A DNA stretch of 64,000 nt from Anaerolineales bacterium (GCA_035693825.1 DASSGB010000232.1:4199-68198); one strand, 5' to 3'. Shown: positions 19,515-61,446, counted from the first letter of the stretch. Made by a program: numbers and translations. Notes: generated by a model from the letters alone, not told the origin.

Positions 19515-19597
19515 CAGTGGTCAGGGTGAGTTGTCGGTGGGCAGAAAGAGCCGGACGGGGCACCGCCCGCTGACCACTCATCACTGGCCACTGACCG
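19515..19597. repeat. Inverted pair of heptamer arrays (CAGTGGT-type and CTGACCA-type)
   Basis: CAGTGGT CAGGGTG AGTTGTC GGTGGGC ... CTGACCA CTCATCA CTGGCCA CTGACCG. The two arms are largely complementary. Confidence 0.85.
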
Positions 19598-19602
19598 CCG
19601 CA

Positions 19603-19611
19603 TGTTATACT
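19603..19611 (+). promoter_or_regulatory. Extended -10 (TGTTATACT)
   Basis: A TGnTAnnnT box lies directly after the heptamer array, about 120 nt upstream of the ATG at 19733. Confidence 0.4.
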
Positions 19612-19732
19612 GCCGCCGGTTTTCCCGCCGCCCACCGGCTCCCCCTCCCCCACGCTCCGATCCAATCGAGACGAGCCGGCTCCTTCCCGATCGCGACGGG
19701 CCGTACGCCAGACCTGAGGTCGGACTTATCCG

Positions 19733-20500
19733 ATGACGCGCCGCTTGACTCCGGCGAACCTCATTTTCGGTCTGCTGTCCCTGGCGGGGCTGGTAGCGTT
19801 CGCCTATCCGTTTTGGGCCCCGGCCGGTCTGGACCCAAGCCAGATGCGTCCCGCGTTGTTTCTCTTCAGCGGATCGCTGGCGATGATCCTGGTCGCGATG
19901 CTGGCCGAGGCACAAGAAGGCTTGACGGCGCACACCATCGCCATGCTGGGTGCGCTGGTGGGCCTCAACACCGCGCTGCGCATGATGGACAACCTCGTGC
20001 CGCTTCCCGGCGGTTTCTCACCGGTCTTCCTTCTGATCGCCTTGGTGGGCTATGTCTTCGGCGCACGTCTGGGCTTCCTGATGGGCGCCCTCACACTCTT
20101 GATCTCTGATCCTCTTAGCCCGGGAGGCCTCGGGCCGTGGACGCCCTACCAGATGCTGGCCGCCGGCTGGGTAGGGATGGGCGCGGCCTTTCTGCCCAAA
20201 CGCGCCGGCGCGCTGGGTCTGGCTGTGTACGCCGGCCTGTGGGGCTGGCTCTTCGGCGTCCTGACCAATCTCTACTACTGGCCCTACGCGCTCGGCGCGC
20301 CGGACATCAGCTGGCAGCCGGGCCTGGGATGGGGAGAGATACTGGCGCGCTACGGCCGCTACTACCTGGTCACGTCGCTGGCCTGGGACACGATGCGAGC
20401 CATCGGGAACGTCGTCCTCCTGGGCGCCCTCGGCCCGTCGCTGATCAAGGTCCTCGAGCGATTCCGACGGCGGGCGTATGTCGCCTGGGAACCTGCGTGA
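19733..20500 (+). CDS. Polytopic membrane protein, tentatively ECF-transporter S-component-like
   Basis: 255 aa with 6-7 TM helices. The Gly/Ala-rich helices resemble annotated ECF S components. This is a weak call based on recognition only. Confidence 0.4.
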   Translation: MTRRLTPANLIFGLLSLAGLVAFAYPFWAPAGLDPSQMRPALFLFSGSLAMILVAMLAEAQEGLTAHTIAMLGALVGLNTALRMMDNLVPLPGGFSPVFLLIALVGYVFGARLGFLMGALTLLISDPLSPGGLGPWTPYQMLAAGWVGMGAAFLPKRAGALGLAVYAGLWGWLFGVLTNLYYWPYALGAPDISWQPGLGWGEILARYGRYYLVTSLAWDTMRAIGNVVLLGALGPSLIKVLERFRRRAYVAWEPA

Positions 20501-21824
20501 ACGCGGCCGGATGCCTGACATGCGAATGAGACGCTCGCCTCGTCGCTGGGTCATCGTGGCCGCGGCCATCGTACTGAGCCTCGTCCTCGGTGCCTGGGTA
20601 TACAACCTGCCGGCCGTCCAGGAGCGAATCGGCTGGCGAGTTTCCGAGGCGCGCGCCGCCCTGTGGTATGCCCTCTTCCCGCCGGAGGAATCGGTGTTCA
20701 CTCCGGATCCAACACTGGCGGCCATGGTCCGGCAGACCCTCGGGGCGTTAACCCCGACCCGCACGATCACGCCCACGCGCGGGCCGACTTCCCTTCCCAC
20801 CACCACGCCCTCACCCACCATCGTGCCGACTCCTCTTCCGGAGCGCGTGGCCCTCAGCGGAACCCGTCACGAGTACCAGCAATACAACAACTGCGGCCCG
20901 GCCACACTGGGCATGGGACTCTCCTTCTGGGGATGGACCGGCGATCAACGCCCGATCGCGGCCTTCACCAAGCCCAACCCGCGCGACAAGAACGTCATGC
21001 CTTATGAGATGGAAGCCTTCGTCGAGAGCGAGACCGAATGGCTGGCGGTCGTGCGCGTGGGCGGAAACCTGGACCGACTGAGGTCCTTCCTGGCGGCCGG
21101 CTTCCCGGTCATCGTCGAAAAAGGATTCGAACTCGAAGGTGCAGCATTCGACGGGTGGATGGGACACTACGAACTGATGACGGGCTACGACGATGCCCGC
21201 GGCCGTGTCACCGCCCAGGACTCCTACATCGGCTCGGATCTGCCGGTGAGCTACGAGGAACTCGAGGCCAATTGGCGGGCCTTCAACTACACCTACATCG
21301 TCATCTATCCCCCAGACCGCGAAGACCAGGTGCTGGCCCTGCTCGGCCCGGATGCCGACGAGAAGGCCAACATCGAGGCCGCCGCCCAAAAGGCCTCGGA
21401 CGAGATCTTCGCCCTGACCGGCCGCGATCAGTTGTTCGCCTGGTTCAATCGCGGCACCAACCTGGTGGACATGCAGGACTACGCCGGGGCGGCGGCGGCC
21501 TACGACGAAGCCTTCCGCATCGACGCCGAGTTGGCCATCCTCGATCCCGAACACCGGCCGTGGCGCATCCTGTGGTATCAGACGGGCCCGTACTGGGCTT
21601 ACTTCTACTCCGGCCGCTACTACGACGTCATCAACCTCGCCACGCAGACTCTGTCCAACATGAGCGAGCCGATCCTGGAGGAGAGCTATTACTGGCGCGG
21701 CCTGGCGCGCGAGGCCATCGGCGACGTCGCCGGGGCCATTGAAGATCTTCGGACCAGCCTGATCTATCACCCCGGTTTCGAGCCGGCTCTGTTCCATCTG
21801 AACCGCCTGGGCGTAGATGCCTGA
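20478..21824 (+). CDS. Membrane-anchored peptidase C39-like domain protein with TPR repeats
   Basis: YQQYNNCGPATLGMGLSFWG matches the C39-like catalytic-Cys region, and the C-terminus is TPR-like. The start may instead be the ATG at 20511, after the previous stop. Confidence 0.7.
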   Translation: MSPGNLRERGRMPDMRMRRSPRRWVIVAAAIVLSLVLGAWVYNLPAVQERIGWRVSEARAALWYALFPPEESVFTPDPTLAAMVRQTLGALTPTRTITPTRGPTSLPTTTPSPTIVPTPLPERVALSGTRHEYQQYNNCGPATLGMGLSFWGWTGDQRPIAAFTKPNPRDKNVMPYEMEAFVESETEWLAVVRVGGNLDRLRSFLAAGFPVIVEKGFELEGAAFDGWMGHYELMTGYDDARGRVTAQDSYIGSDLPVSYEELEANWRAFNYTYIVIYPPDREDQVLALLGPDADEKANIEAAAQKASDEIFALTGRDQLFAWFNRGTNLVDMQDYAGAAAAYDEAFRIDAELAILDPEHRPWRILWYQTGPYWAYFYSGRYYDVINLATQTLSNMSEPILEESYYWRGLAREAIGDVAGAIEDLRTSLIYHPGFEPALFHLNRLGVDA

Positions 21825-23394
21825 GTCCGCGCGCCCGAAGGCCGCGCTCACCGTCCTGCGAGCCTGGTCGCCCGTCGCCCGTGCCTCGCTCCTGATCGCG
21901 GGCCTGTTCGCCATCGACAAGCCGCTCGATCTGCTGCGGCAGATCATCATCGGCCGGCAGTTCGGTGTGGGCCCCGAGCTGGACGCGTTCAACGCCGCCA
22001 ACAATCTCCCCGACCTCCTGCGGGCGCTGATCACCGGCGGCGCGCTGTCGTTGGCTCTGATCCCCGTCCTGTCGGAAGCACTCGAGCGCAGCGGTCGCCC
22101 GGCGTTGTGGTCGTTGTTCAGCCGCATCGCCAATCTGGCCTTCGTCGTCACCGGCGTCCTGGCGGTCGTGGTCGGGTTGCTGGCCGAGCCGATCGTTCGC
22201 TCGCAGTGGGGCATCGCCCCCGGGTTCGCGCCCGAGGTCCAAGACCTGGTGATCGAGTTGATGCGCCTCAACCTCGCCGCGCTGTTGCTGTTCTCGGTCA
22301 GCGGCTTGGTGACCTCCGGCCTGCAGGCCAATCAGCATTTCTTCCTGCCGGCTTTGGCCCCGGTGGTGTACGACCTGGGCCAGATCGGCGGCGCGCTCGT
22401 GCTCGCCCCCGGCCCCGACGATCTCGCCATCGCCGGGCTGCGCTTCCCGGGGTTGGGACTCGGCGTTCACGGCCTGGTTTACGGCGTCATCATCGGCGCC
22501 GCCCTGCACCTGGCCGTGCAGCTGCCGGGCCTGGTGCGGCATCACTTTCGCTGGTCTCCATCCCTCGACCTTCGGCATCCCGGGGTCCGACAGGTGCTGA
22601 GGCTGATGGGACCGCGCCTCGTGACCATCGGCGCGTTTCAGCTCATGTTTGTCATTCAGGACAATCTGGGCTCACGCCTTCCCAGCGGCGCGGTGACGGC
22701 CCTGACGTACGGCTGGCTGATCATGCAGTTTCCGGAGACTCTCATCGGCACCGCTCTGGGGACAGCCCTGCTCCCGACGCTCTCGGAACAATTCGCCCGC
22801 GGCGATTCATCGGCCTTCGGCGCGAGTGTCGAACGCGGCCTGCGTGTCCTGCTCGCGTTGACGCTGCCTTCGGCGGTCCTGCTCGCGCTTGCGGTTCGAC
22901 CTCTGGTCGCGGCCGCGTTCGCCTTCGATGACGCGGGCACGAGCCTGGTGGCGGCCACCACGCAGGGCTTCCTAGTGGGATTGGTGGGCCATGCCTGGCT
23001 GGAAGTGCTGGCGCGCGCCTTCTTCGCGCGCCAGAATGCCCGGCCTCCGCTTGTGGCGCGGCTGGCTAATCTGGCGGTGTTCCTGGCCGCAGGCGCGGCC
23101 CTTTTCCGGCCGCTGGGAGCACTGGGGATCGCCGTCAGCAACAGCCTGGGCTTCACGGTCGAGGCGGCCGTTCTCTACTTGATTCTCCGACGCCCTCGGC
23201 CCGAGATCCGCGGCGCGTGGTCGTGCCTGCCGCGCGCCATCGCCGGATCGCTCCTCAGCGGCGCGGCGGCCTACGCCGCCATGAGCTGGCTCCCCCTTCC
23301 TGCGCTCCTGTCCACCGCCATCGGCCTCGCCATCGGCGGCGCGATCGCAGTCCTATTCATCCTGCCCGAATTGCGCGAATTGAAACGGCTGTAA
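21817..23394 (+). CDS. murJ: Lipid II flippase MurJ
   Basis: 525 aa with 14 TM helices. MurJ/MviN-like N-terminus (FGVGPELDAFNAANNLPDLL). Overlaps the upstream gene by 8 nt. Confidence 0.85.
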   Translation: MPESARPKAALTVLRAWSPVARASLLIAGLFAIDKPLDLLRQIIIGRQFGVGPELDAFNAANNLPDLLRALITGGALSLALIPVLSEALERSGRPALWSLFSRIANLAFVVTGVLAVVVGLLAEPIVRSQWGIAPGFAPEVQDLVIELMRLNLAALLLFSVSGLVTSGLQANQHFFLPALAPVVYDLGQIGGALVLAPGPDDLAIAGLRFPGLGLGVHGLVYGVIIGAALHLAVQLPGLVRHHFRWSPSLDLRHPGVRQVLRLMGPRLVTIGAFQLMFVIQDNLGSRLPSGAVTALTYGWLIMQFPETLIGTALGTALLPTLSEQFARGDSSAFGASVERGLRVLLALTLPSAVLLALAVRPLVAAAFAFDDAGTSLVAATTQGFLVGLVGHAWLEVLARAFFARQNARPPLVARLANLAVFLAAGAALFRPLGALGIAVSNSLGFTVEAAVLYLILRRPRPEIRGAWSCLPRAIAGSLLSGAAAYAAMSWLPLPALLSTAIGLAIGGAIAVLFILPELRELKRL

Positions 23395-23397
23395 GAG

Positions 23398-23538
23398 CAG
23401 TGGTCAGTGGTGACCCCTGCGCTTGCCGTTCTTCCGCCAAATGAGGCGCAGGGGTGAGTGGCCAGTGGTCAGCTCTCGCAGGCGACGCGGCTGCCCACAC
23501 CTGACGGCTGATGGCTGACGGCGGACGGCCGACGGCCG
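23398..23538. repeat. Heptamer arrays (CAGTGGT type, then CTGACGG type) interrupted by a 41-nt palindromic insert
   Basis: CAGTGGT CAGTGGT GA[CCCCTGCGC...GCGCAGGGG]TGAGTGG CCAGTGG TCAGC ... CTGACGG CTGATGG CTGACGG CGGACGG CCGACGG. Located between convergent stops. Confidence 0.9.
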
Positions 23539-23539
23539 T

Positions 23540-24805
23540 TTACTCCTTTTCGTATGGAACACCATCAGCCGCGGGCATCTGGCCTCGCCCAACCACCCCG
23601 GCCAGCACGATCATCGTCGCCACGTAGGGGGCCATCAGCAGGAATTCGGATGGGATCTGGATTCCCAGGATGGCCAGTTTCGAGGCCAGCGAGTCGGCGA
23701 AGCCGAACAGCAGGCCCGCGCCGAACGACCCGAACGGCGTCCAGTTGCCGAAGATCATCGCTGCCAGGCTGATGAAGCCGCGACCGGCGGTCATCACCTC
23801 GTCGAAACGGCCGACCGAGCCCAGGGTGAAATAGCCGCCGGCGAATCCGGCCATCATCCCGCCGAGCATCACGGCCATGTAACGGGTCCGGAAGACGTTG
23901 ATCCCGAGCGTGTCGGCCGCCTTGGGATGCTCGCCGACGGAGCGCAGGCGAAGCCCCCACCGGGTGTAGAACAGCGCCACGTGAATCACCGCCAGCAGCA
24001 CGAACATCGCATACACGAACATGTTGCTGTCGAACAAGATCGGGCCCAGGAAGGGGATGCGCGACAGCACCGGAATCCTCCAGGGCTGGAAGATGCCCGG
24101 GTTGTTGAGGTGCTGGTAGGTCTGCAGGAATTTCGCCGATATGTAGGAGGTCAGGCCGGTGGCCAGGATGTTGATGACCGTGCCCGATATGATCTGATTG
24201 GTCTTGTACTTGATGGAGAGCACGCCGTGAATCAAAGCCAGCAGCAATCCGCTGAGCACGGCGGCCAGCAGCCCGATCCACAGGCTGTCCGTCAGGCTGC
24301 CCACCAGCGATCCGACCATCGCCCCGGTGAGCATCATGCCCTCAATGGCGATGTTCACCACTCCCGCGCGTTCGCAAAGCACCCCGGAGAGCGCTCCGAG
24401 CGTAAGGGGCACGGCGCGCGACAGGCTCGTATTCAGCAATCCGCCGAGGTTGAGCGATTTGTCCGCCGCGGCCCACACCAGAAAGCCGAAGATCGAAAGT
24501 CCTGCCACCACGCCCAGGACGGCGTTCGTCCATCGCCCGAAGCCGCGCGCCAGCTGAACTCCTCCCAGCACGGCCGCGACCAGCGCCAGCGCGTTGAGGG
24601 TGGCCATCGTCGGCAGGTGCCAGTCGGGCAATGTGACCTCGGCCGCGCCGGGCGCGAGGTTGAAAACCGTGACCTGTTCGCCGCTCGAGGTACGGCTGAA
24701 GAGAAACCACACGGCGAAAGCCAGGCCCAGAAACACCAGCCCCATGACGCGCTGGCGTGTCGTCGAAACTCCAACCCACGGTCGAGAGACGGCGGTGGCG
24801 GCCAT
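23540..24805 (-). CDS. ABC transporter permease (BMP/nucleoside-type system)
   Basis: Polytopic permease in an operon with a second permease, a double ATPase and a BMP lipoprotein. Confidence 0.9.
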   Translation of the reverse strand: MAATAVSRPWVGVSTTRQRVMGLVFLGLAFAVWFLFSRTSSGEQVTVFNLAPGAAEVTLPDWHLPTMATLNALALVAAVLGGVQLARGFGRWTNAVLGVVAGLSIFGFLVWAAADKSLNLGGLLNTSLSRAVPLTLGALSGVLCERAGVVNIAIEGMMLTGAMVGSLVGSLTDSLWIGLLAAVLSGLLLALIHGVLSIKYKTNQIISGTVINILATGLTSYISAKFLQTYQHLNNPGIFQPWRIPVLSRIPFLGPILFDSNMFVYAMFVLLAVIHVALFYTRWGLRLRSVGEHPKAADTLGINVFRTRYMAVMLGGMMAGFAGGYFTLGSVGRFDEVMTAGRGFISLAAMIFGNWTPFGSFGAGLLFGFADSLASKLAILGIQIPSEFLLMAPYVATMIVLAGVVGRGQMPAADGVPYEKE

Positions 24806-24808
24806 GGG

Positions 24809-26080: not shown

Positions 26081-26089
26081 GGCCTGGTC

Positions 26090-27649: not shown

Positions 27650-27740
27650 AACCTCTCCTGGGTGCCTGGGGGGACGCTCATTCTATCACGCACGCTCGCC
27701 GATCAGGCTCGCCGCGTGCGCAATGATGGCCGAAGCAACC

Positions 27741-27770
27741 GCGGGGGCTGGCTTGTGGCCAGCCCCCGCG
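27741..27770 (-). terminator. Intra-operon hairpin downstream of the binding-protein gene
   Basis: GCGGGGGCTGGC-TTGT-GGCCAGCCCCCGC lies between the SBP stop (27808) and the ATPase start (27649). It could be a partial terminator or mRNA stabiliser that sets SBP excess. Confidence 0.45.
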
Positions 27771-27807
27771 TGTCGATCGGTCTTCCTCCGAAGCAACCCT
27801 CGGTCGC

Positions 27808-28989: not shown

Positions 28990-28998
28990 ATGATAGCA
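28990..28998 (-). promoter_or_regulatory. Extended -10 (TGCTATCAT) for the BMP ABC operon
   Basis: The minus strand reads CATGCTATCATCACC, about 150 nt upstream of the ATG at 28836. Confidence 0.4.
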
Positions 28999-44332: not shown

Positions 44333-44375
44333 CAATAGCCAACGGCAGACGGCGGACGGCTGACGGCCGACGGCC
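44333..44375. repeat. Heptamer array (NGACGGC x5-6)
   Basis: CAACGGC AGACGGC GGACGGC TGACGGC CGACGGC. It abuts the stop codon at 44378-44380 of the minus-strand gene. Confidence 0.9.
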
Positions 44376-44377
44376 TT

Positions 44378-49227: not shown

Positions 49228-50292
49228 ATGGCGCACCTTTTCGTGCCGGGGCCGACCGATGTCGCCCCCGAGATTCTGGCAGCGCAGACCCACCCCATGA
49301 TCGGGCATCGCAGCCAGGCATGTTCGGATCTGATGGCCCGCATCCAACCTCGCCTTCAGCAGGTACTCCAAACCCGCCAGCGCGTGTACATCACCGCCTC
49401 CTCGGGGAGTGGACTCCAGGAAGCGGCCGTTCGCAACACGGTCGCGCGGCGCGTGCTGGTGTGCGTTGGCGGCGCTTTCGGCGAACGCTGGTATGACATC
49501 GCGCGCGCCAACGGCCTTGCCGCCGACCGCCTCGACGCGGCCTGGGGCGAGCCGCATCGGCCGGATCAGGTGGCCGAGGCCGTGGCGCGCGGCTACGACG
49601 CGGTGGCCATCGTCCACAACGAGACGTCCACCGGGATCGAAAACCCGGTGGCCGATATCGCCCGAGCCGTGCGCGCCGCGGCGCCCGAAGCGCTGCTGCT
49701 CGTCGACGCCGTGTCCTCTGCCGGCGGAGTCGACCTTCGGCCCGACGAGTGGGGGCTGGATGTTGTTCTCACCTCCTCGCAGAAGTGCTTCGCGCTGCCG
49801 CCGGGGTTGGCCTTCGCCGCCGTCAGCGATCGCGCCCTCGAGCGCGCGGCCACGATCGCCCACCGAGGCTGGTATTTCGATTTCCTGCTGCTGGAGAAGT
49901 ACCTCCAACAGCACAACACGCCGGCCACGCCGGCCATTTCCCTTCTGTACGCCCTCGACGCGCAACTCGATCGAATCCTGGCCGAGGGTCTCGAGGCCCG
50001 ATTCGCACGCCACAGCCGCATGGCGCAAATAGCCCAGGGTTGGGCCGAGGATCGTTTGTCGGTCTTCCCCCGCGCCGGGTTTCGCTCGAAGACGGTCACC
50101 ACCATATCCAACACGCGCGCCATCGATATCGTCGCCCTTTCGGCCCACCTGTCCCGCGCGGGCATGGCCATCGCCAACGGCTACGGACCGCTCAAAGGAA
50201 AGACGTTCCGCATCGGACACATGGGCGAAATTACCCCGGACGACGTCGCCTCTCTCCTGGCGCAGATCGATGGTTTCCTCGGTCAGTCCTGA
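49228..50292 (+). CDS. Class-V aminotransferase (second paralog)
   Basis: Contains LFVPGPTDV..., HNETSTGI and ...SSQKCF (PLP-Lys region). Confidence 0.9.
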   Translation: MAHLFVPGPTDVAPEILAAQTHPMIGHRSQACSDLMARIQPRLQQVLQTRQRVYITASSGSGLQEAAVRNTVARRVLVCVGGAFGERWYDIARANGLAADRLDAAWGEPHRPDQVAEAVARGYDAVAIVHNETSTGIENPVADIARAVRAAAPEALLLVDAVSSAGGVDLRPDEWGLDVVLTSSQKCFALPPGLAFAAVSDRALERAATIAHRGWYFDFLLLEKYLQQHNTPATPAISLLYALDAQLDRILAEGLEARFARHSRMAQIAQGWAEDRLSVFPRAGFRSKTVTTISNTRAIDIVALSAHLSRAGMAIANGYGPLKGKTFRIGHMGEITPDDVASLLAQIDGFLGQS

Positions 50293-51736
50293 CCCACCGG
50301 CCCCGCAGCGGCCGAGCGGGCGACTCCTCGCGGGGCTGTTCCTGGTGGCTGCGCTTCCCCGCCTGGCGCTGGCCCTGGTGTACCTGAACCTCCCCATCGG
50401 CCTGGACGACATGTTCCAGTACGACATGCTCGGCCGCTCGCTTGCCTCCGGAAACGGCTACCGCTGGTACACCCGCGCCGACGTGGCGGCCCTGCGACCG
50501 TATCTCGACAAGTGGTATGCCATCGATCTTCCGACAGAAGCCGTTCCCGCCGACGGGTATCTCACCACGTTTCGTGCTCCCGGGTACCCGCTTTTCCTCG
50601 CCGGGATCTACTCGTTGGTGGGCATGACACAGCGGTTGGCCGCGGTCCGTCTGATTCAAGTCGGCCTCGGAGCGATGCTTGCGCCCCTGACGGCTCTGCT
50701 GACCGCCCGGCTCTTGCCCTCCCCGCGAGCGCCCTGGATATCCGGAACCGTCGTTGCGCTGTACCCGATCCTGTGGATGTATCCCCTCGGCCTCGGCTCC
50801 GAGAATCTGTTCATGCCCCTGGTCATTCTTTCGGGGCTGGCTCTCCTGCGCGCGGCGCGGTCTGCTGGCGACGCCCCGGCGGCGGTGGCGGGCGTGACGA
50901 TGGGACTGGCCACCCTGACCCGCGGCGCGTTCGTGCTCACGTGGCCTCTGGCCCTGGTGTGGCTCGCCCGGCGCGCCGGCGCGCGCCGCGCCCTGTTGAC
51001 GGCGATCGCTGCCGCGGCCATCGTGGCGCCGTGGGCCATCCGCAACAGCCGCGTGTTGGGCCGGCCGGCTTTTGTCGAAACCACGTTGGGCTACAACCTG
51101 TTCATCGGCTACCACCCCGAAGGCGACGGCGGCTTCGTGACGCGCATCGCGCTCATGCCCGTCCACATGCTCGACGACGGCGAACGCGACCGATGGACGA
51201 TGGAGCGCGCGCTGGGCTTCATTCGCAGCGACCCCACGCGGGCGGGTCTTCTCACACTGCGGCGATTGGCGTATTTCTGGGGCTGGGAGACGCGCGAGCT
51301 GGCGTACTTCTACAGCAACAACACCTTCGGTCCATTGCCGTCAGGCGTGCTCCTGGCGGCAATGCTTGTCTTGGTCGGACCGTGGATGGCCGTCGCCCTG
51401 TCCGCGCCGCTGGGCTTCGCCGTTGCTCCCGGCTCCGGGGGCCGCTGGTTCAGCCTGGCCTTTCTGATCGGGGGCATGTTGCCGTACATACCCGTCCTGG
51501 CCGAGCCGAGATTCCACTTGCCCGTACTTCCGTGGCTGTCGGCCTACGCGGCCTACGCGTGGCTCGAGCGCCGCCGCTGGTTGCAGCCATCGCCGCCGGC
51601 CCGCCTGGCCATCCTGGCCGCGGTTCTGGTGATCATCCTTCTCGTCTTGCTGTGGAGCTGGGACGCCCTGCGTCTCCTGCCTCGCTGGCAGGCCGTGTTC
51701 TCGCCCGGCGGCCACCGCCTGTATCTTGCCTATTGA
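50270..51736 (+). CDS. GT39/ArnT-like polyprenyl-phosphate-dependent glycosyltransferase
   Basis: About 12 TM helices. The first loop DDMFQYDMLGRSL (DD/DE motif) is typical of PMT_2/ArnT-like enzymes. Confidence 0.75.
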   Translation: MVSSVSPDPPAPQRPSGRLLAGLFLVAALPRLALALVYLNLPIGLDDMFQYDMLGRSLASGNGYRWYTRADVAALRPYLDKWYAIDLPTEAVPADGYLTTFRAPGYPLFLAGIYSLVGMTQRLAAVRLIQVGLGAMLAPLTALLTARLLPSPRAPWISGTVVALYPILWMYPLGLGSENLFMPLVILSGLALLRAARSAGDAPAAVAGVTMGLATLTRGAFVLTWPLALVWLARRAGARRALLTAIAAAAIVAPWAIRNSRVLGRPAFVETTLGYNLFIGYHPEGDGGFVTRIALMPVHMLDDGERDRWTMERALGFIRSDPTRAGLLTLRRLAYFWGWETRELAYFYSNNTFGPLPSGVLLAAMLVLVGPWMAVALSAPLGFAVAPGSGGRWFSLAFLIGGMLPYIPVLAEPRFHLPVLPWLSAYAAYAWLERRRWLQPSPPARLAILAAVLVIILLVLLWSWDALRLLPRWQAVFSPGGHRLYLAY

Positions 51737-51780
51737 CCGCGGACCGATCCTCTCGCCGCCGACAAAGCCTTCGAGGCCAC

Positions 51781-52563
51781 ATGTCCCCACCTTCCCTCCA
51801 GGATCGCTACGAACGTGCCGTCGAACTGGCGCGCCAGGCAGGCGCGCTGCTTCGAGCCGGGCTGGGATCGGTCGAAACGATCGAACACAAAGGCGCCATC
51901 GATCTCCTGACCGAATACGATCTGCGTTCGGAACGTCTTCTGGTGGATGGATTGCGGCAGTCCTTTCCGGACGATCCGATTCTGGCCGAGGAAGGCGGCG
52001 GCGCCCAAGGCGCGCGCCGCTGGCTGATCGACCCCCTGGACGGCACGACCAACTTCGCCCACGGGCTGCCGCATTTCTCGGTGTCGCTGGCCTACGCCGA
52101 AGGCGGCGATATCCGGCTCGGTGTCGTCTTCGACCCGGCGCGCTCCGAGCTCTTTCACGCCATCCAGGGCGGAGGCGCTTTCCTCAACCAGGCGCGGCTG
52201 CGCGTCTCCTCCACAGCCAGCCTCGACCGGGCCCTGCTCGTCACCGGTTTCCCCTACGATATCCGGACGGCGGATGAAACGAACCTGGAGCTCTTCTCGA
52301 AGATGGCTCTGCGCGCCCAGGGACTGCGGCGCTTGGGTTCGGCGGCGCTCGATCTGGCCTACGTCGCCGCCGGCCGCTTCGACGGCTACTGGGAGCTGCG
52401 TCTATCACCCTGGGATTGGGCGGCGGGGATTCTTCTCGTGCGCGAAGCCGGCGGTCGAGTGACGCGCCTCAGCGGCGAGGAGGACATCTTTCGCCCGCCC
52501 ACCTCCATCATCGCCAGCAACAGGCTCATCCACCAGGCAATGCTCGAGGCGCTGGAAGAATAG
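51781..52563 (+). CDS. suhB: Inositol monophosphatase family protein
   Basis: LAEEGG...WLIDPLDGTTNF...WDWAAG motifs. ATG at 51781; the longer listed ORF is an upstream extension. Confidence 0.9.
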   Translation: MSPPSLQDRYERAVELARQAGALLRAGLGSVETIEHKGAIDLLTEYDLRSERLLVDGLRQSFPDDPILAEEGGGAQGARRWLIDPLDGTTNFAHGLPHFSVSLAYAEGGDIRLGVVFDPARSELFHAIQGGGAFLNQARLRVSSTASLDRALLVTGFPYDIRTADETNLELFSKMALRAQGLRRLGSAALDLAYVAAGRFDGYWELRLSPWDWAAGILLVREAGGRVTRLSGEEDIFRPPTSIIASNRLIHQAMLEALEE

Positions 52564-52564
52564 G

Positions 52565-52620
52565 GGTCAGTGGTCAGTGGTGAGTGGTCAGACCGACACC
52601 TGATGACTGACGACTGAACG
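52565..52620. repeat. Inverted heptamer arrays (GGTCAGT x4, spacer, CTGAYGA x3)
   Basis: GGTCAGT GGTCAGT GGTGAGT GGTCAGA CCGACAC CTGATGA CTGACGA CTGAACG. The array fills the gap between convergent stops. Confidence 0.9.
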
Positions 52621-52627
52621 GGGCAGC

Positions 52628-53449
52628 CTACGATCGTCTCGACTTCAGGGCCGACTCGAGCTCGGCGAAAGGGACGCGCGAGGTCATGTCGAGGCTCAGC
52701 GGGGTGACGGACACTTTGCGTTCGACGCGCAGGGCATGTGCGTCCGACCCGGGCTCGAGAGAACTGGCCTCCACCGAAACGCGGTAACCCATCAGTCCCG
52801 GTTCGCTCAGCTCGGTGCGGCCGGAGGCCACCGGCTCGTAGTAGCGCATGCGTGACAGCCGCGTGAGCCTCCACGGTGTCTCGGGCGTGGCCCCGATCGG
52901 CACATCGACCTTCAAGACATCCACATCCTGCAGCCGGCCGGTCTTCATCAGCGTCGCGCCGAATTGGCGGGCGAAGAAGGCCGCCGCCGAGAAATCCACT
53001 TCTTCCGAATGCGTCAGGTGATAGCGGCTCTCGGCTTCCTGGGAGACCGCCAGCGCCGGGATTCCGGCCGCGGCGCCTTCCAGCGCAGCGCCGATCGTGC
53101 CCGAAATGGTCACGCTGGTGGAGACGTTCTCGCCGTAGTTGATCCCAGACACGACCAGATCCGGTTTGCGCGGCACGAGCTCGAACAGCGCGTGCTGGAC
53201 GGCCTGCGCCGGCGAGCCTCCCACGGCGTACACCTTCCACGACTTCCCGCCGACCACGACGTCTTGTTCGTGAATGGCGCCGTCGGAACTCGGAGGCATG
53301 CTTCGACCGCTGCCGGATTGCTGCTCGCGCGGGGCTACCACGAACACGAAGCCGATCTCGGACAGCGACTCGGCCGCGGCCCACAATCCGGGCGAACGGA
53401 TGCCGTCGTCGTTGGTCAACAGGATGAGAGGTCTGTCGTCCGGGATCAT
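52628..53449 (-). CDS. surE: 5'/3'-nucleotidase SurE
   Basis: ILLTNDDGIRSPG motif, then ...SGINYGEN. ATG at 53449 (an upstream TTG is listed). Confidence 0.9.
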   Translation of the reverse strand: MIPDDRPLILLTNDDGIRSPGLWAAAESLSEIGFVFVVAPREQQSGSGRSMPPSSDGAIHEQDVVVGGKSWKVYAVGGSPAQAVQHALFELVPRKPDLVVSGINYGENVSTSVTISGTIGAALEGAAAGIPALAVSQEAESRYHLTHSEEVDFSAAAFFARQFGATLMKTGRLQDVDVLKVDVPIGATPETPWRLTRLSRMRYYEPVASGRTELSEPGLMGYRVSVEASSLEPGSDAHALRVERKVSVTPLSLDMTSRVPFAELESALKSRRS

Positions 53450-53538
53450 GGTCGAGACAAATCGTACCAAGCCGCCACCCGCCGGTCAACGCAGCCGGCG
53501 CAAGGATCGTGCCAGGCTGGACGAAGGCTGCTCAACCT

Positions 53539-54174: not shown

Positions 54175-54223
54175 CTCCCGCCCTCCACTTTGACGAATCG
54201 CCGCGCACCGAAGTGTACCCGCC

Positions 54224-54847
54224 TCACGCGGGACCACGTCGCATCGTCCACAACTCAATCGGCGTTCCGGGAAATTCGAGGTGGCTGAGCACCTGAAAAC
54301 CGTGCTTGGCGTAGAAAGCGAGGTTATCTTCCTTCACGGTCTCCAGGTAGCAGGCGGACTTCTCGGCATCGGCAACGGCCAGGATCGGCGCCAGGAGACG
54401 ACTGCCGATTCCTTGCCCTTGGCGGCCCGGCTCGACGCCCAGGGCCTGGAGATACCAGAAGCGACCGGTCATGAGCCTGCGACGCTCGCCGTCGAGAATC
54501 TCCACGGCTCGAAACAGGAGGCGGCGAGGCTTTTCCGGAGCACGAAGAAACGAGATCGGCAGCGCGAAGCCTGTACGCAGCGCGCGCGCAAAGGTGAGAT
54601 CGTCCCGGCCGGGAGCGGCCCAACAGGCGACTCCCTCCAGCCCGGCTGTCGCGTAGACCTTGCCCAGGATCCGGCAGGTGTGGATGAGGGCCCTCCACAG
54701 ATTCCGGGTAAAGCGAAGCCGGCGCTGCTCCTCGGGAAAGAGGAAGGAGTAGAAAGGATCGTCCGCGAAGGCGCGCGTGAGCACATCCGCGGCCCGCCCT
54801 TCGGCGGAAGGCGAAAGTTCGACGACGGACGCGGCCGGCTTGCTCAT
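54224..54847 (-). CDS. GNAT family N-acetyltransferase
   Basis: QGQGIGSRLLAPIL...FYAKHGF core. ATGA overlap with the upstream ATPase stop. The long listed ORF (to 55744) runs out of frame relative to the ATPase gene and is rejected. Confidence 0.8.
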   Translation of the reverse strand: MSKPAASVVELSPSAEGRAADVLTRAFADDPFYSFLFPEEQRRLRFTRNLWRALIHTCRILGKVYATAGLEGVACWAAPGRDDLTFARALRTGFALPISFLRAPEKPRRLLFRAVEILDGERRRLMTGRFWYLQALGVEPGRQGQGIGSRLLAPILAVADAEKSACYLETVKEDNLAFYAKHGFQVLSHLEFPGTPIELWTMRRGPA

Positions 54848-57442: not shown

Positions 57443-57526
57443 GCGGGCGATGCACCTGCCGTGCGGCCGGGCGTCGAGCGGTCGCGAGGAATCGTGGGCG
57501 TGCGCCTGCGCGATTTCGGCACCAAG

Positions 57527-58570
57527 CTAACCTTCGGCCCTACGCGATCTGCCAAGCAGCCCGGCGGCAGCCAGGACCGCTAGCAGCACGACCAGTGTCG
57601 CCATCAGGATCGGGGTCGTGGATCCGCCGGTCGCGGCGAAACCTGCCGGCAGTCGCGGCACGTCGGTCAGATCCGCCCCCGCCAGGGCCGGGATGGCCTG
57701 GACCGTCGCCAGGAAGTTGTCCCCGGGCGTGGCGGCGTTGAACGCCAGCGCTCCGCTCGGCTGCTGCAGCGCCTGCAGGGCGCGTTCCGGATGGCCCCAT
57801 TCGCTCAGGTCTTGCCCGGAGGCCATCAGCGCCTGGATCACCACCGCCGTCGAATTGGCATCGGTGTCCTCACCGAAGGCGCTCGGCTTCTGGTAGGTCC
57901 AGCCCCCATCCGCGTTCTGCACCAGGCGGAAGTAGTCAATCGAGGGTGCGGCCTCCGATCCGGCACCGGCCGCCAGCAGCGCCTGAACGACGAGAGCCGT
58001 GGTGTTGCTGTCACCGGCGTCCGGGGTCATGTCGCCCGCAAACGAGTAGCTTCCATCCGGCAACCGCGTGGCCACCAGACCCGTCAGCGCGCCTTCGGGC
58101 AGCGCTTCACCTGCGGCGCGCAGGGCCAACACGGACAGCCCGCTGTCGTAGGGGCCGCCTCCGAACAAACCCGTCTCGGAATTGAAACCCGCCAGCACCG
58201 CGTCCACCAGATTCGCGCCGCCGAAGTCGCGCGGATCTTCGCCCGCGGCGACGGCGGCCAGGACCACCTTGGCCGCCAGGCCGGGCGTTTCGAGTTTGGT
58301 GGCCTGCGCCGTGAGGTACTGGATCGGCGAGGTGCCCTCGACGACCCACGTCGACGGATCCTCGCCGGCACTGGCGATGGCCACCACGGCGTCGGCCGTT
58401 GCGCCAGGATCACTGCCCTCACTGAACCCGGTCGAGAAGCCTCCGTCGGCCAGCTGCTCTGTTCGCAACCAGGCCAGCGCCGCGGCCGCGCCGTCCTGCG
58501 CCGCGGCGGGCAGCGGCGAGAGGATCCAACCGAAAAGCACAGATACAAGGATGAGCCGTCGAATCCACAT
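57527..58570 (-). CDS. Secreted, C-terminally membrane-anchored prenyltransferase/squalene-cyclase-repeat (alpha/alpha-toroid) protein
   Basis: Signal peptide (LSPLPAAAQD). Repeated QxxDGG(F/W)-type motifs (EQLADGGFS, RLPDGSYSF, VQNADGGWTY, QQPSGALAF). Terminal TM (ILMATLVVLLAVLAAAGLL). Confidence 0.75.
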   Translation of the reverse strand: MWIRRLILVSVLFGWILSPLPAAAQDGAAAALAWLRTEQLADGGFSTGFSEGSDPGATADAVVAIASAGEDPSTWVVEGTSPIQYLTAQATKLETPGLAAKVVLAAVAAGEDPRDFGGANLVDAVLAGFNSETGLFGGGPYDSGLSVLALRAAGEALPEGALTGLVATRLPDGSYSFAGDMTPDAGDSNTTALVVQALLAAGAGSEAAPSIDYFRLVQNADGGWTYQKPSAFGEDTDANSTAVVIQALMASGQDLSEWGHPERALQALQQPSGALAFNAATPGDNFLATVQAIPALAGADLTDVPRLPAGFAATGGSTTPILMATLVVLLAVLAAAGLLGRSRRAEG

Positions 58571-58602
58571 GATGGTTTGCTCCCTTAGAAGGTCAGGCTA
58601 CG

Positions 58603-58638
58603 GCCAGAAACACAACCTCCCCGTTCTGGCGGGGAGGC
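58603..58638 (-). terminator. Riboswitch expression-platform terminator
   Basis: The minus strand reads CCUCCCCG-CCAGAA-CGGGGAGG followed by UUGUGUUUCU. The upstream GGAGGCGGCGCC could act as an anti-terminator. Confidence 0.6.
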
Positions 58639-58905
58639 GCGAGGTACATAGGCGCCGCCTCCTTTCCGCGAAGGCATGTCAAGCGCCGGGCAGAGGCGGG
58701 TATCCTGGCTTGGATGCCGTCTGCCATCAGCCTTCCGCCATCAGCCGAAACCGCCCAAGCTGATAGCCGACAGCCGATAGCTGACAGCCTTCCCTACAGT
58801 TGCGGGACAGCGCCGGACTTCCGCGTGCGAGCCGCAGTCACCGGCTTCCCCTTCGTTGACCTTCGCATCCGGGCGAAGGCCACCTCTGCCCAGGGGTTAT
58901 CAGTT
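58616..58905 (-). promoter_or_regulatory. Cobalamin (B12) riboswitch
   Basis: The minus strand reads ...GGUGGCC...GAAGGGGAAGCCGGUGA...GGAAGUCCGGCGCUGUCCCGCAACUGUAGGGA...AAGCCAGGAUACCCGCC. These are the conserved GGGAAnnnGGUGA, GCUGUCCCGCAACUGUA and B12-box elements in the canonical order. Confidence 0.85.
58716..58788. repeat. Inverted heptamer arrays forming the riboswitch's variable hairpin
   Basis: GCCGTCT GCCATCA GCCTTCC GCCATCA GC - 13-nt loop - GCTGATA GCCGACA GCCGATA GCTGACA GC. The 30-nt arms pair with a few mismatches and G-U pairs. Confidence 0.85.
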
Positions 58906-58913
58906 GTGGGAGG

Positions 58914-58943
58914 AGTATAGGGCCTCAAGGTGGGCCGCGTCAA
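58914..58943 (-). promoter_or_regulatory. Promoter (TTGACG-18-TATACT) upstream of the riboswitch
   Basis: The minus strand reads GCATGCTTGACGCGGCCCACCTTGAGGCCCTATACT. Confidence 0.45.
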
Positions 58944-59265
58944 GCATGCTGACTTGCCGCCTCTCGCGCAGCTGACCGATTTGCTGCCCCCGTTCGCCTG
59001 CGCCGCACCAAGCGCAGCGCAGGTGCAGGCGGGCCGCGCGAAGCCCCGGCCCGCCGGGGCGAGACGGCCTCCGGCGCGCCCCTCGCCACCGGCTCAGGGC
59101 GCGCCTGCGGGCTCTGTTTCGTTGATGACCCTACCGCGCAAGGACAGCCGCCGCCCGCGAATAGTTGTCACCGGGAGGAGGTCGAAGGCCTACGAAGCGA
59201 TCTCCTCGCTTCACCGGGACGTTTCCTGCTCTCGCCCAGCGGCCTCGCGGATGCGAGCCCCGCCA

Positions 59266-59287
59266 CAAGTCCCCGGCAGGGCAGTGA
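59266..59287 (+). repeat. Promoter-upstream element, short copy (CAAGTCCCC-GGCAGGGCAGTGA)
   Basis: Retains both ends of the 49-nt element at 37951 but lacks the internal palindromic core. Lies 22 nt upstream of a TTGACA -35. Confidence 0.6.
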
Positions 59288-59308
59288 TTCTGTATTCGGA
59301 AACCCAGA

Positions 59309-59337
59309 TTGACAGCCGCCGCGCGACATGTTACAAG
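59309..59337 (+). promoter_or_regulatory. Promoter (TTGACA-17-TACAAG, with TG at the extended -10 position) for rnj
   Basis: TTGACAGCCGCCGCGCGACATGTTACAAG, giving a predicted leader of about 270 nt. Confidence 0.5.
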
Positions 59338-59611
59338 TGCAGCAATCTTTCCGGACAGACCCGGCGCGGGCGCGAGAGCGCCCGCGGGTTTCAACGGTTT
59401 CGAAAGCTGCGATCGCATTTCCACCGACGAGGGACTTCACTCCTCGTCCATCCCACGGCAAGGCCCTCCCCGTTCCGCCTGACAAGCGACCCGGCGACGG
59501 ACCCCGACGAACGGATGCGGTGCGAACCGACTTCCGACCGCGCCGCCCGCGCGCCCTTCGCCTGGCAACGACCGCCGCGGTCGCTCCGGATACCATGAAA
59601 AGGATTGTTGC

Positions 59612-61255
59612 ATGAGCACCAAACCACTGCGCCTGGTGCCCCTGGGGGGCCTGGGCGAAGTCGGCAAGAACATGATGGCCCTGGAATACGGCGACAACAT
59701 ACTCGTCGTCGACACCGGCATCATGTTCCCCGAAAACGACATGTTGGGGATCGACTACATCATCCCCGACTTCAACTACCTCAAGGACAAGGCCGACAGG
59801 GTCCGCGGCATTCTCGTGACTCACGGTCACGAGGATCACACCGGCGCCATCGCCCATGTTCTGGAGGACATCCCGGCTCCGATCTACGCCACGCCCCTGA
59901 CGCGCGGCCTGCTCGAATCCAAGATCAGCCGCGCCGGTCTGGCGAAGGAAGCCAAACTCCACACGGTCCAGGCCGGCGATCACGCGCGCCTGGGCCCCTT
60001 CCGCGTCGAGTTCTTCCACGTCTGCCATTCCATCCCGGACGGCGTGGGGCTGGCCATCGACACGCCCGCCGGACTGATCGTCCACTCGGGCGACTTCAAG
60101 TTCGATCACACGCCGGTCGACGGCTGGCCCACGGATTTCGGCAAACTGGCCGAGCTCGGCCAGCGCGGCGTCCTGGCCTTGCTGGCCGACTCCACCAACG
60201 CCGAGCGGCCGGGCTGGACGCCGTCGGAGGCCGTCATCGACCCGGCCTTTGACGAGGTCTTCCTTCAGGCGAAAGGTCGAATCCTGATCGGCACCTTCGC
60301 CTCGCTCATCTCCCGCATCCAGCAGGCGGCCCGGGCCGCCGACCGCCACGGGCGCGTCCTGTCGCTGGTCGGCACGAGCATGATCGACAACGTTCGCATC
60401 GCCCGCCAGCTCGGCTACCTGACCGTTCCCGACGGACTGGTGGTGCCGCTGGACGAGGCTTTGAAGATGAAGCCGGAGCGCGTCGTCCTGATGTGCACCG
60501 GCACGCAGGGCGAACCCTCGTCGATCCTCGGCCGCCTGTCGACCGGCACCAACCGCCAGTTCGACCTGATGGCGGGCGACACCGTCGTCTTGTCCTCCCA
60601 CCCGATCCCGGGCAACGAAGAGATGGTCCATCGGACGATCAACCGCCTGCTTCAACGCGGGGCGAAAGTGATCTACGACGCCATCGCCCCCGTGCATGTC
60701 TCGGGGCACGCCAGCCAGGAGGAGCAGAAGCTCCTGCTGCAGCTCATCCGGCCCCAGTACTTCGTGCCGATCCACGGCGAGCTGCGCCACCTGACGCGGC
60801 ATGCAGGCCTCGCCCGGGAGATCGGCATACCCGCCGAGCGGATCGCCATCGTCGAAAACGGGACAGTGATCGAGTTCCGCGAGGGCGTGATGCAGGTGGG
60901 CGAGCGCATTCCAGGCGGGTATGTCTTCGTCGACGGCCGCGGGGTGGGCGACATCGGCCCTGCTGTGATGCGCGAGCGCGAGTCGCTGGCGCGGGACGGC
61001 TTCGTGCTGGTCCATCTGCGCCGGCATCCGAAGACAGGCGCTCTGGTCGGCGATCCCGAAATACAGACGCGCGGCTTCGTCTATCTACCCGACGCCGAGG
61101 CTTTGTTCCGCCAGGCCCGCCAGCGTGTGCGCGAGCTGGCGAACGGCACCGAGAATGCCCTCCCCGAACGCGTCGAGCGCGAGCTGGGCAAGCTGTTCTA
61201 CGCCGAAACCAAGCGCCGCCCGATGGTCCTGGTCGTCACCTCGGAGACGGGCTGA
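59612..61255 (+). CDS. rnj: Ribonuclease J
   Basis: PLGGLGEVGKNM..., the HGHEDHTGAI beta-lactamase motif, and beta-CASP/C-terminal domains. AAGGA SD. Confidence 0.95.
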   Translation: MSTKPLRLVPLGGLGEVGKNMMALEYGDNILVVDTGIMFPENDMLGIDYIIPDFNYLKDKADRVRGILVTHGHEDHTGAIAHVLEDIPAPIYATPLTRGLLESKISRAGLAKEAKLHTVQAGDHARLGPFRVEFFHVCHSIPDGVGLAIDTPAGLIVHSGDFKFDHTPVDGWPTDFGKLAELGQRGVLALLADSTNAERPGWTPSEAVIDPAFDEVFLQAKGRILIGTFASLISRIQQAARAADRHGRVLSLVGTSMIDNVRIARQLGYLTVPDGLVVPLDEALKMKPERVVLMCTGTQGEPSSILGRLSTGTNRQFDLMAGDTVVLSSHPIPGNEEMVHRTINRLLQRGAKVIYDAIAPVHVSGHASQEEQKLLLQLIRPQYFVPIHGELRHLTRHAGLAREIGIPAERIAIVENGTVIEFREGVMQVGERIPGGYVFVDGRGVGDIGPAVMRERESLARDGFVLVHLRRHPKTGALVGDPEIQTRGFVYLPDAEALFRQARQRVRELANGTENALPERVERELGKLFYAETKRRPMVLVVTSETG

Positions 61256-61265
61256 CAGCCTCGAG

Positions 61266-61446
61266 CTTCCAACTGCCAGCGTCCAGCGTCCAGCACTTAG
61301 AGTTGCCAGTTGCCAGGTTCCAGTTCCCAGCTGCCCATCATCTCCTGCATTCTATGAGACAGGCGTGCATCCGGAAACTGAAGACCGGTAACCGTCGCGG
61401 CTGGTGGCTGGTGACTGGCAGCTGGTGCCTGGCGGCTGGTGGCTTC
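61266..61446. repeat. Largest heptamer locus: 10 NNNCCAG/AGTTGCC-type units, a spacer of about 60 nt, then 7 complementary NGGCTGG-type units
   Basis: CTTCCAA CTGCCAG CGTCCAG CGTCCAG CACTTAG AGTTGCC AGTTGCC AGGTTCC AGTTCCC AGCTGCC ... CGGCTGG TGGCTGG TGACTGG CAGCTGG TGCCTGG CGGCTGG TGGCTTC. Confidence 0.9.

Follow-up and report, generated by a model that had tools for sequence, protein, structure and literature searches.

Heptanucleotide repeat arrays in the non-coding hairpins of an Anaerolineales bacterium

Why do tandem repeats with a unit of exactly seven nucleotides appear between the genes of a bacterium, and do they serve the genes beside them? The question is raised by a stretch of 64,000 nucleotides from an Anaerolineales bacterium (GCA_035693825.1, DASSGB010000232.1:4199-68198), which was analysed as a whole and is referred to here as the window. 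A first-pass annotation, made from the sequence alone, had described in it a dispersed family of imperfect heptamer arrays at six intergenic loci between positions 19515 and 61446, had likened them to the STRR (short tandemly repeated repetitive) sequences of cyanobacteria, and had suggested a terminator or insulator role. We found that the arrays are confined to non-coding DNA, that their length changes by gain or loss of entire 7-nt units, an outcome expected of replication slippage, and that most of them consist of two opposed runs sharing one core (GTCAG/CTGAC or CCAG/CTGG) and serving as the arms of a stem-loop. They represent a known kind of feature, previously undescribed in Chloroflexota within the literature searched, which likewise yielded nothing on the particular units.

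A period-7 signal outside genes

The window was analysed with a sliding self-match scan at two cuts (at least 17 and at least 16 matches of 21), with 30 dinucleotide-preserving shuffles as the control. The stricter cut gave five period-7 arrays against a shuffle mean of 0.00, and the looser one gave eight against 0.40; the comparison with shuffled sequence that the first-pass annotation had proposed, as run on the window, thus came out as an enrichment. Among periods not divisible by 3, strong arrays were present at period 7 only (0-1 arrays at periods 4, 5, 8, 10 and 11), and the few arrays of periods 6, 9 and 12 are the usual repeats of coding sequence. All eight period-7 arrays lie outside coding sequence (P ~3e-7, given that at most 15.5% of the window was left uncalled by crude gene calls). 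The marks of heptanucleotide long simple sequence repeats (SSRs) were therefore all found: excess over chance, non-coding bias and, as described below, length change in whole units.

Tandem Repeats Finder (TRF) reported period-7 arrays at five of the six loci, which we number 1 to 6 by position, and the proposed dispersed family is borne out. The unit types were GGTCAGT, CTGACGG, GCCGACG, CCAGCGT, GTTGCCA and GGCTGGT. The exception is locus 1, where periodicity is weak and was missed by both TRF and the period scan; this locus was recognised by its ACTGACC-like units and its very stable hairpin. The arrays in the window are short (3-7 units), and most are paired as hairpin arms. With at most one mismatch allowed, 14 copies of the sequence GTCAGnnGTCAG were counted where 4.35 would be expected; 12 of these copies are within loci 1-4. 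Loci 1, 2 and 4 have in common a stretch of ~20 nt (CAGTGGTCAGKGGTGAGT) and the variant unit GGTGAGT.

Relatives were represented by metagenome contigs related to Anaerolineae, 436 kb in all (RNase J 62-79% identical, among the matches listed), which contained 23 period-7 arrays against 0-1 for periods 4, 5, 8, 10 and 11. A broader scan, for four tandem copies of GTCAGnn in a collection with one genome per species, gave at least 120 matches. Those listed came from Cyanobacteria, Acidobacteriota (many), Verrucomicrobiota, Planctomycetota, Chloroflexota, Bacteroidota, Actinomycetota, Gemmatimonadota, Nitrospirota and several proteobacterial groups; the Chloroflexota among them were Roseilinea, Anaerolineae, Thermoflexales, Caldilineaceae and Chloroflexales. 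Among these matches, arrays with the GTCAG core are thus found in at least 10 phyla, in hosts of 31-73% GC and with up to ~37 units, and the same loci also hold many heptamer arrays of other units. The view that a high-GC genome outside the cyanobacteria is an unusual place for such a family does not survive this survey, nor does it agree with the literature as far as it is summarized in two papers, which name heptamers in Xanthomonas, Burkholderia, Actinobacteria and Beggiatoaceae (PMC4679880, PMC4692102).

Length change among relatives

Locus 5 (58711-58795, minus strand; TRF 58758-58789) had been counted among the intergenic arrays as 58716-58788. Like the other five loci it is non-coding, but it is not a spacer: it lies inside a predicted cobalamin riboswitch on the minus strand at 58678-58902 (Rfam RF00174, full model, 71.9 bits against a gathering threshold of 31.5, E = 8.9e-16), where it forms the variable peripheral stem. 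Heptamers make up both arms, which in RNA sense read GGCUGUC, AGCUAUC, GGCUGUC, GGCUAUC on one side and GGCUGAU, GGCGGAA, GGCUGAU, GGCAGAC on the other. Contigs of relatives are designated here by L-numbers (L001, L002, L003, L124, L126, L127, L129-L132 and L134). The riboswitch was found in seven relatives, and the stem was cut out between the conserved GCAACTGT and CCAGGAnAC motifs. Its length rises from ~25 nt in L003 and 28 nt in L132 through 60 nt in L001, 85 nt in the window, 86-88 nt in L126 and L124 and 92 nt in L130 to 126 nt in L129. Both arms of the stem consist of xxxGTCAGC/GCTGACxx heptamers in the window and in L001, L124, L129 and L130, and pairing is preserved. In the series we see direct evidence of an existing helix being extended on both sides by heptamer arrays without destruction of the RNA, as far as a predicted riboswitch can be judged by its conserved parts.

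The pair L129 and L130, with flanks 91-95% identical, displays the step of this change. Their indels of at least 5 nt measure 5, 7, 7, 7, 7, 10, 21, 23, 28 and 29 nt, so that 6 of the 10 in the array regions are multiples of 7 (7, 21 and 28 nt), which is a signature of slippage. Near-clones behave differently. L001 and L002, which are one lineage from two samples, differ at 11 of 6596 nt (99.8% identical), and L130 and L131 are 99.99% identical; in these two pairs, the only ones of their kind, unit counts are the same, so that the strain-to-strain difference typical of phase-variation (contingency) SSRs was not seen in them. Taking all pairs, length changes by whole units, at percent-level divergence, not between near-clones. 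Six of the 11 differences between L001 and L002 fall in the 146-nt gap that contains the hairpin behind the RNase J gene, which corresponds to ~4.1% divergence there against 0.08% elsewhere, and three differences inside the arrays each make a unit resemble its neighbour (a reading made by eye). No clear compensatory changes between L001 and L002 were found in this hairpin, because its arms pair in several registers and partners changed between folds.

The gap between the RNase J gene and the gene for a SurA-like protein can be followed across several relatives. Its heptamer hairpin is present in the window, in L001 and L002 (RNase J 91% identical) and in L003 (86%). It is missing from L127 (86%, 19-nt gap), L124 (79%, 55-nt gap) and L126 (79%, 167 nt), yet these three contigs retain the TGGGTATAATCCGC...ATG promoter. 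Where arrays follow RNase J, a (G/T)CCAGTT-like core is kept and the details differ. The gap between the inositol-phosphatase and SurE genes, filled by locus 4 in the window, measures 45 nt in L126 and has no array.

Two side observations on these contigs deserve mention. In L129 a ~40-nt palindrome (ACACTTGCACCTGCG...CGCAGGTGCAAGTGT) occurs twice (about 2130-2175 and 2505-2545), each copy directly after GCTGAC inside a heptamer array and one of them in the riboswitch stem, and L130 has none. From its placement, it looks like a tiny mobile hairpin that targets arrays. L134 carries a c-di-GMP-II-GAG riboswitch (1204-1307, minus strand, 49.7 bits), which has no relation to the arrays.

Gene setting and folding of the six loci

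The GC content is 65-70% across the whole 64-kb window (66% is the figure for the host). The close homologues of its RNase J (59612-61255) are all from Anaerolineales or Chloroflexota, and a 100% identical protein comes from a metagenome-assembled genome (MAG) labelled "Anaerolineales bacterium". The window holds ordinary chromosomal genes: those for aconitase, FtsK, GAF histidine kinases, an ABC ATPase and RNase J, and further those for a SurA-like peptidyl-prolyl isomerase, MurJ, SurE and inositol monophosphatase; the genes beside arrays are housekeeping genes. The sole tRNA gene, tRNA-Gln(CTG) (1415-1488, minus strand), overlaps the ends of two crude open reading frame (ORF) calls, and these calls therefore over-extend. 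In the ORF at 50512-52563 (683 aa), the inositol-monophosphatase domain is confined to residues 430-682, and this ORF overlaps another long ORF at 50270-51736; the gene model at 50270-52563 is uncertain, and two genes may be present.

Four loci begin 0-10 nt past a stop codon, as had been noted. However, only two of them (23398-23538 and 52565-52620) lie in convergent gaps; three had been claimed, and 44333-44375 and 61266-61446 turned out to lie between genes on the same strand. Locus 2 occupies the whole stop-to-stop gap between the MurJ and permease genes (23398-23538). Its left part (23398-23475, plus strand), with GGTCAGT, GGTGAGT and GGCCAGT units flanking an ordinary 12-bp hairpin (23413-23455), begins 3 nt past the MurJ stop (23394). 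Its right part (23501-23538, plus strand) reads CTGACGG, CTGATGG, CTGACGG, CGGACGG, CCGACGG (TRF 23501-23536, CTGACGG x5.1, score 51; also found in the period scan), pairs with the GGTCAG units of the left part and stops 1 nt short of the stop of the convergent permease gene (23540). Locus 4 (52561-52630, plus strand; TRF 52565-52591, GGTCAGT x3.9) likewise takes up the whole convergent gap between the genes for inositol monophosphatase (plus strand, stop 52563) and SurE (minus strand, stop 52628); it is a hairpin with four GGTCAGT units in the 5' arm and CTGATGA, CTGACGA, CTGAACG in the 3' arm. Locus 3 (44333-44377; TRF 44338-44375, period 7, x5.4) is a single array of GCCAATA, GCCAACG, GCAGACG, GCGGACG, GCTGACG and GCCGACG without an opposed partner, and it immediately follows the stop (44378) of a minus-strand gene and lies upstream of the next gene, also on the minus strand.

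Locus 6 comprises three arrays on the plus strand. Array A (61266-61294), of CCAGCGT units (TRF 61276-61294, 2.7 copies, 100% matches), begins 10 nt past the RNase J stop (61255). Array B (61300-61335; TRF 61301-61335), with GTTGCCA, GTTGCCA, GGTTCCA, GTTCCCA and GCTGCC, is the 5' arm of a long hairpin whose 3' arm is array C (61397-61446; GGCTGGT x6.6; TRF 61399-61444, score 57). The E. coli Chi octamer GCTGGTGG occurs twice in this 3' arm (61399-61446); since Chi sequences are species-specific, the match is probably a coincidence of the GGCTGGT unit.

Array C is separated by 10 nt from a TATAAT (61457-61462, plus strand), and the SurA-like gene has its ATG at 61473. A promoter-plus-start motif, TGGGTATAATCCGCnnnCGyATG, is kept in every relative examined, with or without the hairpin. 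The conserved TGGGTATAAT is found 10 nt 5' of the ATG (window 61453-61475; L001 7276-7300; also L124, L126 and L127), and a box so close to the start codon would imply a leaderless or near-leaderless mRNA. At locus 1 (19515-19594, plus strand), a hairpin lies in a divergent gap with a -10-like box 3-11 nt off each end; its 5' arm reads CCCCAGT, GGTCAGG, GTGAGTT, GTCGGTG and its 3' arm GCTGACC, ACTCATC, ACTGGCC, ACTGACC. The neighbours are a LysM-protein gene (minus strand, GTG at 19498) and the gene for the S component of an energy-coupling factor (ECF) transporter (plus strand, 19733). The two -10 boxes pointed out in the first-pass annotation, at 19603 and 61457, do match the consensus. The former, TGTTATACT (19603-19611, plus strand), is an extended -10-like box directly 3' of the hairpin; it is a consensus match only, and a sigma-70 scan requiring a -35 box found nothing at 19603-19611. 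A third box, TAGAAT (19506-19511, minus strand), likewise inferred from the consensus, precedes the LysM-gene GTG by 7 nt, a layout shared with the SurA-like gene, and would give a leaderless-type arrangement. Around locus 1, Rfam at a permissive threshold returned a single meaningless match to a miRNA family (E = 0.65); hence no known leader or riboswitch was found upstream of the ECF S-component gene.

Upstream of the riboswitch that holds locus 5 is a promoter-like site, TTGACG-18-TATACT (58943-58914, minus strand), and downstream are a terminator-like hairpin (58638-58615, minus strand) and a gene at 57527-58570, followed by genes for a CbiQ-like protein and an ABC ATPase. This set is probably a B12-regulated ECF-type uptake operon for cobalt or cobalamin.

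The hairpins proposed for five of the six loci were confirmed by folding: opposed arrays give long imperfect stem-loops with stems of 25-50 bp, whereas for the single array of locus 3 no fold of significance was obtained (z = -0.70). G.U pairs make the folds strand-asymmetric. The plus strand is favoured by 10-13 kcal/mol at loci 1 (-52.3 kcal/mol, z = -5.35, vs -40.1 on the minus strand), 2 (whole locus, -75.1, z = -2.61, vs -62.0) and 4 (-29.8, z = -2.66, vs -20.0). Locus 5 folds at -53.1 on the minus strand, which is the riboswitch sense (z = -5.40), vs -30.5 in antisense, with 7 vs 0 G.U pairs. Locus 6 folds at -91.6 over 218 nt (z = -1.86), and its hairpin core at -72.0 on the plus strand, the gene sense, vs -55.6 on the minus strand, with 12 vs 3 G.U pairs. 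A replication-strand origin of this asymmetry, through hairpins in single-stranded DNA, was considered and rejected, because locus 5 favours the strand opposite to that of loci 1, 2, 4 and 6. A cross-phylum comparison covered 42 hairpin-type clusters; of those beside a gene 3' end, 7 folded better in the upstream gene's sense and 14 in antisense, as far as crude gene calls can tell. A looser strand test on 231 array clusters with stop-to-stop ORF calls gave 32 vs 36, the asymmetry being dominated by single G/T-rich arrays. Neither count, with gene calls this crude, speaks clearly for a general rule by which the upstream gene's sense folds better, and much of the asymmetry reflects which strand is G/T-rich. 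At several loci, locus 4 for instance, the 5-nt core (GUCAG/CUGAC) is all that the two arms have in common and the 2-nt spacers do not match, which is unlike the outcome of selection for a maximally stable stem.

Although stems are present, stem-loops directly followed by a U-tract, as in intrinsic terminators, were generally not found: the terminator scan revealed no U-tract at loci 1, 4 and 6, and it flagged one terminator-like site with a U-rich tail, at the end of locus 2 (23523-23541, then ACTCCTTTTC). The terminator or insulator role of the arrays is unproven. Ordinary hairpins without heptamers are present in other gaps of the window, at 16449-16503, 27725-27785 and 63158-63223, the last with a 22-bp stem, 95% complementary, in a convergent gap; thus the genome also uses conventional stem-loops at gene ends. 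Another candidate function, that arrays supply stop codons in all frames (a TGA every 7 nt), was rejected because the CCAGCGT, GGCTGGT and GTTGCCA units are stop-free on both strands and because what the upstream gene meets first is not the orientation with TGA.

Known heptamer repeats and the origin of the arrays

Are these arrays STRR sequences? The cyanobacterial heptamers CCCCAGT, TTGGTCA and CAACAGT were reportedly described by Mazel et al. in 1990, and Vioque is said to have found, in 1997, an STRR inside a cyanobacterial RNase P RNA gene; this case concerns helix P12. Here as there, imperfect tandem heptamers are dispersed in non-coding DNA (six loci in 64 kb), several unit types with related cores occur in one genome (GGTCAGT vs CCCCAGT and CAACAGT, all NNNCAGT), and an array lies within a length-variable helix of a structured RNA, in our case the predicted cobalamin riboswitch. 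On the other hand, the host is a member of Anaerolineales (Chloroflexota) with 66% GC, and the arrays are short and mostly hairpin arms. A lone CCCCAGT (19513-19519) opens locus 1, as had been pointed out, but tandem dimers of the three canonical units, in any rotation, are absent from the window. "STRR-like" therefore describes the behaviour of the arrays, not membership.

Heptanucleotide repeats are the most abundant class of long SSRs in many bacteria; over-represented heptamers were found in Burkholderia, Actinobacteria and Xanthomonas, and it was proposed that ~7 nt corresponds to the polymerase-contacting segment, which would favour slippage (Mrazek 2007, as summarized in PMC4679880 and PMC4692102). 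The arrays described here share with those SSRs the period-7 excess, the intergenic bias and a sporadic spread across the phylogeny, and a slippage origin fits the indels in multiples of 7; in contrast, these summaries do not name Chloroflexota, and the hairpin-arm layout and the riboswitch case are absent from them. GGGAATC arrays are present at 186 loci in Xanthomonas, with 65% GC, and GGGGA(C/T)T arrays in Nostoc (Rehm et al. 2015, PMC4692102). These repeats have a non-coding bias and some inverted pairs in convergent gaps, and the Xanthomonas arrays occupy the same gene gaps in sister species with highly variable length and sequence; a regulatory role was not found (PMC4692102). A high-GC non-cyanobacterial host (Xanthomonas), non-coding bias, convergent inverted pairs and same-gap variability are thus common to both systems. 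However, those repeats have G3-4 tracts, form G-quadruplexes and prefer four units, whereas the units here are without G-tracts and form Watson-Crick/G.U stem-loops; the G3+ tract in every unit that marks quadruplex-forming heptamers was not found, and the window has no GGGAATC dimers. TAACTGA arrays (169 sets) are known in marine Beggiatoaceae, some Cyanobacteria and Bacteroidetes (MacGregor 2015, PMC4679880). They too are intergenic, with 2-6 units, a CTGA core and a patchy distribution across phyla, and one array in L003 resembles them in lying directly upstream of a ribosome-binding site and start codon; nevertheless, they are nearly all direct (1 indirect of 169) and upstream of starts, whereas here most are inverted pairs after stops. 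Finally, GC-rich stem-loops in gene 3' regions and convergent gaps are shared with intrinsic terminators and with repetitive extragenic palindromic (REP) sequences and bacterial interspersed mosaic elements (BIMEs). The arrays differ from the former in having no U-tract at 3 of 4 3'-end loci and much longer (25-50 bp), imperfect stems, and from the latter in that no conserved palindromic unit is found among the six loci.

How would such arrays arise? We consider it reasonably probable that they are slippage-driven heptamers that are purged from coding DNA, arise in or beside hairpins, lengthen both arms and are tolerated. As 7 is not a multiple of 3, arrays within genes would be removed by selection. 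Elsewhere, arrays would begin within or beside existing intergenic or structural hairpins and then extend both arms, either through slippage that starts separately from complementary seeds or through a template switch inside the hairpin, and they would persist because the longer helix is harmless. The arrays may thus be viewed as expansion segments of RNA or DNA hairpins, be it in a riboswitch stem, in stop-to-stop gaps or in stop-to-promoter gaps; a role as transcript-end stem-loop or insulator would be secondary and locus-specific, and would not be why the family exists. The riboswitch series, the indels in multiples of 7, the hypervariability and the absence from sister lineages all support this account.

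Several observations weigh against it. The CCAGT core is kept across lineages with RNase J 86-91% identical, which indicates long persistence at this locus, and since unit numbers are equal within each near-identical pair, lengths do not turn over fast. No arrays were found in the sisters L124 (21 kb), L126 (21 kb) and L127 (13 kb), and slippage leaves this unexplained. Loci 5 and 6, where the direction of transcription is certain, are clearly more stable in RNA sense, as would be expected from selection on RNA structure. CTGAC/GTCAG is present in 26% of 27 unselected Anaerolineae arrays (1% expected) and CTGA/TCAG in 33% of them (5% expected); slippage from random seeds does not explain such recurring cores (CTGAC/CAG, and GGTGAGT at loci 1, 2 and 4), nor is the preference for 7 over 4, 5 or 8 explained. 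The step of 7, the recurring cores and the RNA-sense folding of loci 5 and 6 keep a functional or mechanistically specific reading alive.

One such reading, which we regard as somewhat unlikely, takes the hairpins for selected RNA elements (U-tract-poor terminators, stem-loops that stabilise 3' ends, or insulators against read-through into a convergent gene or a following promoter), the heptamers being merely how this lineage builds hairpins; it would apply at loci 2, 4 and 6. It would account for the four loci that start at stop codons, including the two that fill convergent gaps completely, for the ends of loci 1 and 6 right upstream of -10 boxes, for G.U pairs that favour the transcribed sense where it is known (locus 5 and the core of locus 6), for the terminator-like site of locus 2, and for the persistence of CCAGT-core arrays after RNase J in three lineages. 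It fits less well with the lack of U-tracts at loci 1, 4 and 6, with relatives that have the same gene order and promoter without the hairpin, with the unfolded single array of locus 3, and with the 7 vs 14 sites in the cross-phylum strand test, with its crude gene calls; other gaps of the window use ordinary hairpins (63158-63223, 16449-16503), and locus 1, if both of its -10 boxes are genuine, has a promoter on either side pointing away from it and would be transcribed from neither. Another reading derives the hairpins from a small non-autonomous mobile element (like a REP/BIME, or a miniature inverted-repeat transposable element) that carries heptamer arrays and inserts beside stops; it appears highly improbable. 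The stretch CAGTGGTCAGKGGTGAGT at loci 1, 2 and 4, the variable presence among relatives and the palindrome inserted twice in the L129 arrays, which indicates that small mobile hairpins exist in the clade, speak for it. However, there are no conserved termini, target-site duplications or constant length (the hairpins measure 60-150 nt and have unrelated loops), repeat searches including TRF show no longer shared unit among loci, and lineages differ by unit-wise indels inside arrays rather than by presence or absence of a whole element. No transposase or REP-associated tyrosine transposase gene was seen, and none was searched for.

The recurring core and the period would both find an explanation if arrays were selected as multivalent sites to which a sequence-specific protein attaches, one binding module to each heptamer; this could be a single-strand nucleic-acid binder with a cold-shock domain or a DNA-binding regulator. 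CspB binds heptamer repeats with one protein per heptamer (reviewed in PMC4679880), and one or a few heptamers dominate hundreds of loci per genome in the TAACTGA and GGGAATC systems (169 sets and 186 loci; PMC4679880, PMC4692102). Besides the enrichment of CTGAC/GTCAG, CAG/CTG is found in 56% of the 27 unselected arrays (24% expected), and the core recurs in the window, at four or five loci independent of one another, as well as in riboswitch stems from several lineages. Against this, the units vary among loci (GGTCAGT, GCCGACG, CCAGCGT, GTTGCCA, GGCTGGT) and among orthologous arrays, arrays are found in every orientation and context, units at most loci are tied up in the pairing of a stem and thus do not offer single strands, and a candidate protein was not identified. 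Nor is GTCAG unique, because four-copy arrays are common for several unrelated cores of like base composition in IMG/VR contigs (GTCAG at least 120, GTGAC at least 120, TGGAC 104, GACTG 81, GCGAT 36, GTACG 12). Certain cores are therefore preferred in this clade, but one heptamer common to all does not emerge. We hold the protein-site explanation to be quite doubtful. In the virus-like contigs of IMG/VR (L209-L630), heptamer arrays of several cores are frequent, with up to 6 matches per contig.

A more novel reading, which we think unlikely, is a dedicated, lineage-restricted process by which both arms of RNA and DNA hairpins grow outward, 7 nt at a time, units containing CTGAC or CAG being preferred. 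The candidates would be hairpin-templated slippage or template switching by a specific replication or repair enzyme, or selection by a protein that takes one heptamer per module. If true, such a process would run in certain Anaerolineales lineages but not in sister lineages, would work even inside functional RNAs such as riboswitches, and would be the same mechanism that underlies the STRR sequences of cyanobacteria and the arrays of Acidobacteriota, Planctomycetota and Verrucomicrobiota.

In practical terms, arrays of this kind inflate the lengths of riboswitches and untranslated regions, may be mistaken for terminators or new non-coding RNAs, and are likely trouble spots for MAG assembly. 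For the biology of the group, they extend the long-known phenomenon of heptanucleotide repeats to Chloroflexota, where they appear to act as hairpin expansion segments; the growth of a riboswitch stem from ~25 to 126 nt parallels the STRR sequences in cyanobacterial RNase P RNA. With sisters that have and lack arrays, orthologous loci and indels in multiples of 7, these bacteria offer a comparative system for asking why the unit is 7 and why certain cores recur.

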